NCBI GenBank assembly: GCA_039698055.1
Contig: JBDKTL010000025.1
Location: 1-38,644 of the forward strand
Reading direction: 5' to 3'
Origin: Methanoregula sp.
GTDB lineage: Archaea; Halobacteriota; Methanomicrobia; Methanomicrobiales; Methanospirillaceae
Length of the DNA: 38,644 bases
Shown: one piece after another, positions 27,045 to 28,448 of the stretch
How positions within the stretch are numbered: position 1 is the stretch's first letter
How the letters are laid out: each line of letters begins with the position of its first letter
Notes under the pieces: generated by a model
Databases searched by the model: none
What the model was told of the DNA's origin: nothing
The model's input: the letters and a program-made list of their open reading frames with translations, nothing else
Program-made: the position numbers and the translations under genes

Positions 27045-27218
27045 TTAGAACCGGGGTTTCCGGTGTTTCGGCAGGCATTCCTGACAATACACTGGCCTTC
27101 CCTCGGTTGGCTTGAATGGAACTTCGCATTCTTTTCCACAGTCTGAACAGGTAACTTTCGTCATTTCACGTGGGCCGGAGTCTCTGGGACCGCGACCGCC
27201 AAAATTTGATCCATACAT
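27045..27218 (-). CDS. CxxC-x17-CxxC zinc-ribbon protein, 57 aa (not in ORF track)
   Basis: Manual translation: MYGSNFGGRGPRDSGPREMTKVTCSDCGKECEVPFKPTEGRPVYCQECLPKHRKPRF*. Confidence 0.93.
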   Translation of the reverse strand: MYGSNFGGRGPRDSGPREMTKVTCSDCGKECEVPFKPTEGRPVYCQECLPKHRKPRF

Positions 27219-27426: not shown

Positions 27427-27588
27427 TCAGGGTGCCGGTGGGGTTGTTTTCTGGATGCCGCAAATCTGGCCGTATTTGTTAATGCCATACGATGACAGGA
27501 TGGTTTCGTCATCAAGTTGTTTCTCTGCAATCCCGATACGGCTTAATTTGTCACGAAGAATCCGGATATTTTTATCAGTGTTTTGCAT
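27427..27588 (-). CDS. Hypothetical small protein (53 aa)
   Basis: MQNTDKNIRILRDKLSRIGIAEKQLDDETILSSYGINKYG... preceded by GAAGGT. No recognised motif. Confidence 0.4.
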   Translation of the reverse strand: MQNTDKNIRILRDKLSRIGIAEKQLDDETILSSYGINKYGQICGIQKTTPPAP

Positions 27589-27789
27589 AGGGTTACCTTC
27601 TCTTTGGTGTGTGAGATGATGAAGAGATGTTTTTTTAATAGCAGGGATTTTTTTCATGTGCCCTGAATACTGTAGCCGGCACCGCTTGTTCCGGTGTAAC
27701 AAACGGTTGAATATGCCGGCTCTCCCGTGGGTAATGTTGTCAGATTCCTGCAGGTCCGCGCTATATATGGCGGAAAAAACCAAAAAAAG

Positions 27790-28134
27790 TTACAGGTACC
27801 GGTTTTTGCGCAGCCAGTCAACCTGAGGCGGAAGATACCGGTAAATGATATCGCACTTATCGTCTTGGAAACTCCAAGGAGTTACAATTAACGTATCTCC
27901 TTCCCGTATCCAGACACGCTTTTTTATTTTCCCCTTGATCCTGCCCATGCGTGTAACGCCGTCAAAACAGCGCACGCGTATGTGGTTTGCCCCCATCATC
28001 AGATCTGCGGAAGCAAACATTTCATTTGCCCATTTCTTTGGCAGCCTGACCCGGACAAACGGCGTCCCGTCAGGATTTACTGCATTCGGATCGAAATCGT
28101 TACTATTGCCCTTTTTCTGATTATTACTGGTAAT
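27790..28134 (-). CDS. eif1A: Translation initiation factor aIF-1A, probable non-canonical ATT start
   Basis: RVRLP...NEMF...LMMGANHIRVRCFDG.TR.GRI.GK.KKRVWIREGD..IV.PW.FQD.K.DI.YRY. The frame is open upstream of 28020 to a TAG at 28174-28176 with no ATG/GTG/TTG. Confidence 0.93.
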   Translation of the reverse strand: MTSNNQKKGNSNDFDPNAVNPDGTPFVRVRLPKKWANEMFASADLMMGANHIRVRCFDGVTRMGRIKGKIKKRVWIREGDTLIVTPWSFQDDKCDIIYRYLPPQVDWLRKNRYL

Positions 28135-28448
28135 CCAAACAACTCCCTTGTTGTATACATATGGTGTCTGGCACTATTAACGTATGCCTCGTGAGACCCA
28201 GGTGGGGACGGGCGGAAAAGATGGGGGCAATCCATGGTTTTCCTGTGGCATGTGGCATCAATAGGTACAGATCAAGACCGTAAAAATAAAATGATCATGA
28301 ATAAATGTCCCACGTACCTGTTCTTTTACAGGCACTGGAATCCCTCCATCAACCTGGCCCGTCCACCCCTGCGTGGTCCCCAGCAGTGGATGTCCCGGTG
28401 AAGAACAGCAGGATACAGAAATGGAATGATGCAGGGGAGACATATGGC

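Follow-up and report, generated by a model that had tools for sequence, protein, structure and literature searches.

In the Methanoregula DNA analysed here, a stretch of 38,644 nucleotides referred to below as the window, sequence comparison gives good support for translation of the initiation factor aIF1A from a near-cognate codon, AUU, placed behind a strong Shine-Dalgarno site. Comparison of aIF1A loci across the phylum shows that the combination of such a site, at optimal spacing, with a near-cognate start is an ancient and selected feature of the gene. In bacteria (IF3) and in eukaryotes (eIF1 and eIF5), it is textbook knowledge that initiation factors can be controlled through weak start sites of their own. 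The best reading of the archaeal design, drawn from that design and from analogy, is that it may provide feedback on start-codon stringency of the infC and eIF1 type, a reading about which our confidence and our doubt are evenly balanced.

The aIF1A frame lies on the minus strand of the window, where it runs from an in-frame TAG that closes it upstream (28176-28174) to the stop codon at 27792-27790, and its translation meets no ATG, GTG or TTG between the TAG and an ATG at 28020-28018. The proposed start codon, an ATT at 28134-28132, is the only start-type codon of translation table 11 in the open frame that has a Shine-Dalgarno site, and relatives carry a homologous near-cognate codon. It follows the GGAG core (28146-28143) after an 8-nt spacer (minus strand: TTGTTTGG), a length that is also the mode of the genome, and it opens a coding sequence of 114 codons (27793..28134, stop 27790-27792) for an aIF1A of 114 aa. 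The codon before the ATT is TGG, not a stop, and an A-rich run, CAGAAAAAGGGC, lies downstream. The preliminary description of the locus, which had reported no canonical start upstream of the ATG at 28020, an ATT 8 nt after GGAG and a 114-aa product, is borne out in full. A 57-aa treble-clef zinc-finger protein (PF23477, E = 9e-19) is encoded on the minus strand at 27045-27218, beyond the 3′ end of aIF1A; the 118-aa ORF between the two genes (27427-27783) has no Pfam match and may be no gene.

Membership of the product in the aIF1A/eIF1A family is established by a match to PF01176 (eIF-1a, S1-like OB fold) over residues 37-99 (E = 1.7e-21), whose 76.1 bits pass the curated cut-off of 30.2. Homology to solved aIF1A structures extends over the full fold, with 1jt8 aligned to residues 27-114 (E = 4.4e-31) and chain 6 of 5jb3 to residues 22-110 (E = 6.4e-22). 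The first in-frame ATG is residue 39 counted from the ATT and falls within the conserved fold, so that a start there would cost the protein the conserved residues 27-38 (VRVRLPKKWANE). The tail upstream of this ATG also evolves as coding sequence: over 19 codons surrounding and preceding the RVRxP motif, all of them before the window's first ATG, mean entropy among 67 loci with ATT/ATC/ATA-type starts was 0.78, 0.67 and 1.61 for the first, second and third codon positions, respectively. On the Pfam span, the structure alignments and the coding pattern of the tail, the internal ATG is rejected as the start.

A start at this ATG is one form of a broader alternative, according to which the apparent AUU start reflects an artefact or another kind of decoding, the other forms being a sequencing error or indel, a frameshift from an ATG at 28160 and reinitiation after an upstream ORF. 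Such a reading could draw on the A-rich run downstream of the ATT, on the TGA or TAA that stands directly before the start codon in many relatives, and on gene callers that give aIF1A proteins extended to upstream ATGs (P0003 and P0005) or truncated (P0017 and P0021). An error or indel is nonetheless rejected: the design is present in most of 212 loci, and contigs from three further DNA runs (X3, X4 and X5; three studies) span 28029-28300 and match the window at the ATT and from there to the TAG, with neither a substitution nor an indel, so that no upstream start is joined to the frame. The only differences of these contigs over that span are a G for A at 28200 in the contigs of three runs and a T at 28267 in one, both of them strain variants in the divergent intergenic region upstream of aIF1A and outside the start region. 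A metatranscriptome contig (X16), from the same study as a possible source sample, covers 27941-28100; it gives no transcript start, and a contig does not prove transcription. Frameshifting from the upstream ORF at the A-rich run was rejected, since inspection found no canonical slippery heptamer and neither the run nor the upstream ATG is present in relatives, as was termination-reinitiation at an adjoining TGA or TAA, a stop that is missing from the window and that has no conserved uORF ahead of it elsewhere. With the tail under coding selection and included in the solved structures, the whole alternative is already contradicted, and we give it almost no weight.

The preliminary description had also suggested a competing uORF, and the out-of-frame ORF of 27 codons on which it relied, from the ATG at 28160 to the TAA at 28077-28079 (28077..28160, minus strand), is present within a 52-aa ORF (28077..28235). 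Its proposed role did not hold up: ATGs lie within 40 nt upstream of the start in 38 of the 67 ATT/ATC/ATA-type loci, scattered over 17 positions, the commonest of which occurs six times, and in no conserved frame, and the ATG at 28160 has no Shine-Dalgarno site. The ORF is therefore judged not functional. A conserved leader structure was likewise rejected, together with riboswitch-type control, as RNAalifold found 0 conserved pairs among 20 leaders and the window's own leader folds no better than shuffled sequences (z +1.26). Further upstream, TTAATA at 28175..28180 of the minus strand is a possible TATA-like promoter element, to judge from a motif common to relatives (ACGTTAATA, ATGTTAATG or ACCTTCATT) about 35-45 nt before the start.

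The same genome (G000) carries a second aIF1A copy, 70% identical, at C16:54640-54942, and a whole-genome family search returned the same two loci. The frame of the second copy opens at a TGA followed directly by CTG ACC, with GGAG 8 nt upstream, and its first canonical codon falls inside the fold. Both copies follow the design GGAGT(T/G)GTTTG(G/A)-ATT/CTG-ACC; besides the start codon, the two leaders through the second codon differ at only two places (GGAGTTGTTTGG-ATT-ACC and GGAGTGGTTTGA-CTG-ACC). Across the 2867 long ORFs of the genome, spacers between GGAG and canonical starts have a mode of 8 nt (59 cases). Ahead of the first canonical start, the position GGAG+8 shows no genome-wide enrichment of near-cognate codons relative to other codons (ATT 10, CTG 11, ATC 13 and ATA 4, against about 9.5 per codon). 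A wider scan for GGAG 7-9 nt before ATT, ATC, ATA or CTG, upstream of the first canonical start and with at least 90 codons, gave 109 candidates, nearly all of them non-coding frames by eye, among which the two aIF1A copies stand out. When ten of these candidates, the longest or furthest-upstream, were run through Pfam, the one product whose domain began ahead of the first canonical start was GatD, and general use of near-cognate starts in this genome was rejected.

To place the window's start among its relatives, 216 aIF1A loci were gathered from one phylum: 43 from relatives and other Methanomicrobiales genomes, 80 from named Methanomicrobiales records (Methanoregula, Methanolinea, Methanospirillum, Methanoculleus, Methanofollis, Methanogenium and Methanomicrobium) and 93 from 86 genomes of 18 other families. 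Removal of four exact duplicates left 212. Starts were called computationally among ATG, GTG, TTG, CTG, ATT, ATC and ATA codons in the part of the open frame that precedes the RVRxP motif, with at least four contiguous matches to a register that we take to be that of the Shine-Dalgarno site and a start about 12 nt after its first base. Fourteen calls were changed by eye: five to CTG behind a GGGG site (L030, L036, L038, L136 and L187), two to ATT where the script had chosen a far or odd GTG (L085 and L101), five to ATG from the clade and the position of ATG sisters (L096, L102, L103, L116 and L129), and one each to ATG (L208) and ATA (L078). Three loci (L026, L075 and L106) were left uncalled.

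Among the 119 Methanomicrobiales loci, the start was ATT in 54, CTG in 33, ATC in 10, ATA in six and ATG in 13, with three uncalled and no TTG or GTG; among the 93 loci of other classes it was CTG in 55, TTG in 20, GTG in seven and ATG in 11, with no ATT, ATC or ATA and none uncalled. Because the loci share ancestry, with one genus contributing many of them, these counts overstate the number of independent events. GGAG followed after 8-10 nt (mostly 8) by ATT, ATC, ATA or CTG was found in 103 of the 119 Methanomicrobiales loci and in all six families sampled there, while a strong Shine-Dalgarno site precedes CTG in 55 of the 93 other loci; 20 have TTG. Of the 18 other families, 12 include CTG starts, and at least one near-cognate copy is present in 52 of their 86 genomes. 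Alignment of 5′ regions, which had been suggested as a check across Methanomicrobia, is thus strongly positive, and the suboptimal start, the feature expected of an infC- or eIF1-type device, is conserved far beyond that class (103/119 and 55/93 loci). Nor do orthologues point to an ATG at the homologous position, the 13 ATG loci of Methanomicrobiales forming one paralog clade that lacks GGAG. Independently of any start calling, the frame holds no ATG, GTG or TTG from the upstream stop to RVRxP in 50 of the 119 Methanomicrobiales loci and in 40 of the 93 others. One locus, L047 (G144:C63:7686-8015), has a single in-frame TAG within its aIF1A match, with a Shine-Dalgarno site and CTG downstream of it; the TAG is probably upstream sequence drawn into the match.

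The form of the conserved element is strict in some respects and loose in others. GGAG is invariant in an alignment of 20 leaders, and nearly every locus has its start 12 nt downstream of the first GGAGGTGATC register base. In starts of the ATT/ATC/ATA type the first two letters are invariant and the third varies, and starts of the Leu type are CTG (88) or TTG (20) and never CTC, CTT, CTA or TTA, a pattern that is not merely an effect of the start caller because all but three loci were called. A FastTree phylogeny built from the 212 core domains gives at least 26 changes of start codon and at least 16 changes of start class (near-cognate, TTG/GTG or ATG). Taken together, the codon tallies, the at least 26 changes, the restriction to CTG and TTG and the agreement of both copies in the window's genome suggest that the codon is selected to be weak.

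The loci with canonical starts bear on the same question. In Methanomicrobiales, the 13 ATG loci are contiguous in tree order (11 and two, with the uncalled L026 between them), and in all 13 the homologous GGAG is changed to GTAG, GAAG, GCAG or GTTG; ATG therefore accompanies loss of the Shine-Dalgarno site. The argument from compensation comes from this clade, the only one of Methanomicrobiales with ATG, and as a natural case it is suggestive only for the expectation that AUG would abolish control by factor level. The 13 loci make up a third aIF1A paralog clade in Methanoregulaceae, with the N-terminus MSGFHKK... and an ATG directly after TGA (L025, L032, L088, L095-L098, L102, L103, L108, L114, L116 and L129); this ATG paralog was not found in G000, an assembly that is 93% complete. 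Some genomes hold two or three aIF1A paralogs of distinct design, namely ATT-type, CTG-type and ATG without a Shine-Dalgarno site. Elsewhere, halophile-type genes (NLRMP motif) start at ATG or GTG without such a site, family f15 uses TTG, GTG and one ATG, and the other canonical starts are scattered TTG codons and one GTG in family f25 (L183). Beyond the Methanomicrobiales clade and the halophile-type genes, ATG occurs only twice more, in L174, which combines it with a 9-nt Shine-Dalgarno site, and in L188.

As a feedback device, the design would work as follows. Translation of aIF1A would start at the AUU at 28134-28132, decoded as Met by the initiator tRNA, with the GGAG 8 nt upstream placing the 30S subunit at the codon in an unstructured leader. 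The yield of aIF1A would then depend on the stringency of the initiation machinery towards non-AUG codons, which we consider the most likely reason for the design. A 30S subunit well loaded with the aIF1A/aIF1 pair would reject the weak codon and less aIF1A would be made; when the factors are scarce, rejection would relax and more aIF1A would follow. The outcome would be negative feedback of the kind attributed to infC (AUU) and eIF1 (poor-context AUG), with either aIF1A alone or the aIF1/aIF1A pair closing the loop.

The main rival to feedback is plain expression tuning, in which the near-cognate start is real and sets a fixed low translation rate, adjusting stoichiometry without any response to stringency. 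One case that supports it is GatD, the Glu-tRNA amidotransferase subunit D, which is unrelated to initiation. In this genome (G000:C30:24520-25758, plus strand; L222/L259) the gene has an apparent ATA start 8 nt after GGAGG, and among relatives (L260-L288) the sequence GGAGGCTGGTAGC-ATA or a near variant is present in 17 of the 18 Methanoregula-genus loci printed, the remaining one having an ATT further upstream; one further locus matched only from residue 73. In L270, L271 and L274 the upstream stop is six codons away with no canonical codon between, and other families of the order mostly have ATG or GTG at the homologous place. GatD thus appears to be a second gene with near-cognate initiation in the genus Methanoregula, and its GGAGG-N8-ATA arrangement implies that near-cognate starts may be a general expression setting and not a fidelity sensor. 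Tuning would also accommodate TTG, a weak canonical codon, in place of CTG in 20 loci, and the ATG clade with its destroyed Shine-Dalgarno site, which fits low output by any means. Against it, an ATG with a weak site would reach a low fixed rate easily, whereas all six Methanomicrobiales families and 12 of the 18 others retain, on this one initiation factor, the costly combination of a strong site and a near-cognate codon.

The argument from specificity also tells against tuning and for feedback, because near-cognate codons at GGAG+8 show no genome-wide enrichment and aIF1 (SUI1) has no such design: its start is ATG at 30 of 30 loci in 30 genomes of the order. At these aIF1 loci (L139, at G000:C31:35975-36190 on the minus strand, and L230-L258) GGAG is absent in all 30, and most of those from the genus Methanoregula carry an A/T-rich motif (cttaaaaata...) some 9-17 nt upstream of the ATG. 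On balance, we think it rather unlikely that tuning by itself accounts for the design.

Feedback has difficulties of its own. The design is not universal, with TTG in 20, GTG in seven and ATG in 11 of the loci outside Methanomicrobiales and a strong site combined with ATG in L174. In addition, passages of two papers (PMC6237735 and PMC4705826) credit the rejection of non-AUG codons to aIF1 and not to aIF1A, and aIF1 itself starts at ATG; these passages contain nothing on a role of aIF1A in archaeal codon discrimination. According to part of PMC4705826, aIF1 blocks the binding of AUU mRNA in a Sulfolobus system, a precedent that also favours the feedback reading. These statements lend some weight to cross-regulation, in which aIF1A synthesis would report aIF1 activity or a stress-induced loss of fidelity and the differently designed paralogs would be expressed under different conditions, as the two or three aIF1A paralogs per genome with distinct start designs might also suggest. 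This version, which differs from the feedback reading only in which factor closes the loop, strikes us as improbable.

The feedback reading also draws on its likeness to known systems. As in infC, which encodes IF3, an initiation-factor gene has a conserved near-cognate start (AUU in infC and in the window) behind a functional Shine-Dalgarno site, and by analogy a set of start-codon-proofreading factors would limit its own synthesis. Unlike IF3, aIF1A is a homologue of bacterial IF1, its codon varies among AUU, AUC, AUA and CUG, and regulation is in its case a proposal from the design. We know of no such control for bacterial infA. The eukaryotic parallel is eIF1 with its poor-context AUG, and eIF5 with its uORFs, where a suboptimal start on a stringency factor gives negative feedback (described in parts of PMC6237735 and PMC4705826); autoregulation of infC and eIF1 through weak starts is covered in a passage of PMC4705826, whose table also lists IF3 as having no archaeal homologue, and the eIF1 loop recurs in part of PMC6237735. 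The eukaryotic device relies on Kozak context around an AUG and on scanning, whereas aIF1A has a non-AUG codon placed by a Shine-Dalgarno site, and the archaeal homologue of eIF1 starts at ATG throughout the loci sampled. To our knowledge, autoregulation of eIF1A through a suboptimal start has not been reported, and our literature search brought up no such report.

A stronger form of the feedback reading, which we advance tentatively and hold to be somewhat less probable than not as a joint claim, is an archaeal homeostat of start-codon fidelity built on aIF1A and not on a proofreader of the eIF1/IF3 type. In such a homeostat, aIF1A synthesis would read out stringency, the ATG paralogs without a Shine-Dalgarno site would form a second, unregulated channel, and the arrangement would be shared by Methanomicrobiales and by Methanothrix- and Methanocella-like lineages, and might extend further.

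Some public gene calls already use this start. Through the annotation pipeline (table 11), several NCBI entries with the name 'translation initiation factor eIF-1A' have their initial M at the near-cognate codon: P0002 (MTDNNQRK) corresponds to L005 from its ATC and P0024 and P0028 (MPGNPKK) to the L024 form from ATT, all three beginning at the codon homologous to the window's ATT; P0023 and P0029 also begin at a near-cognate codon, P0171 (named Methanocellales) equals L160 from CTG, and P0194 (named Methanothrix) is nearly identical to L049 from CTG. Public calls for the gene (P0001-P0029 and P0121) disagree widely, P0121 for instance starting at a GTG inside the Shine-Dalgarno site. An annotated near-cognate start is a gene call and not a description of a conserved feature or of regulation. 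Searches of the openly accessible full-text literature, including passages of PMC6237735, PMC8211752, PMC4705826, PMC6412873, PMC11456600 and PMC7531240, yielded no statement of a non-AUG aIF1A start, and the 2020 review of archaeal initiation (PMC7531240) gives the start codons as AUG, GUG and UUG.

For annotation, the near-cognate start explains the truncated and over-extended aIF1A gene calls, and because the calls are discordant, family alignments of the aIF1A N-terminus built from them will be unreliable; the rule that follows is to take as the start the codon about 12 nt after the beginning of the Shine-Dalgarno register. For the biology of these archaea, a feedback device of the kind proposed would fill the archaeal gap in this control logic, would suggest that aIF1A helps to discriminate between start codons and would offer a directly testable system in genetically tractable methanogens. 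Should the more tentative homeostat prove true, it would represent a third, domain-specific version of the same logic, with aIF1A taking part in codon discrimination in vivo.
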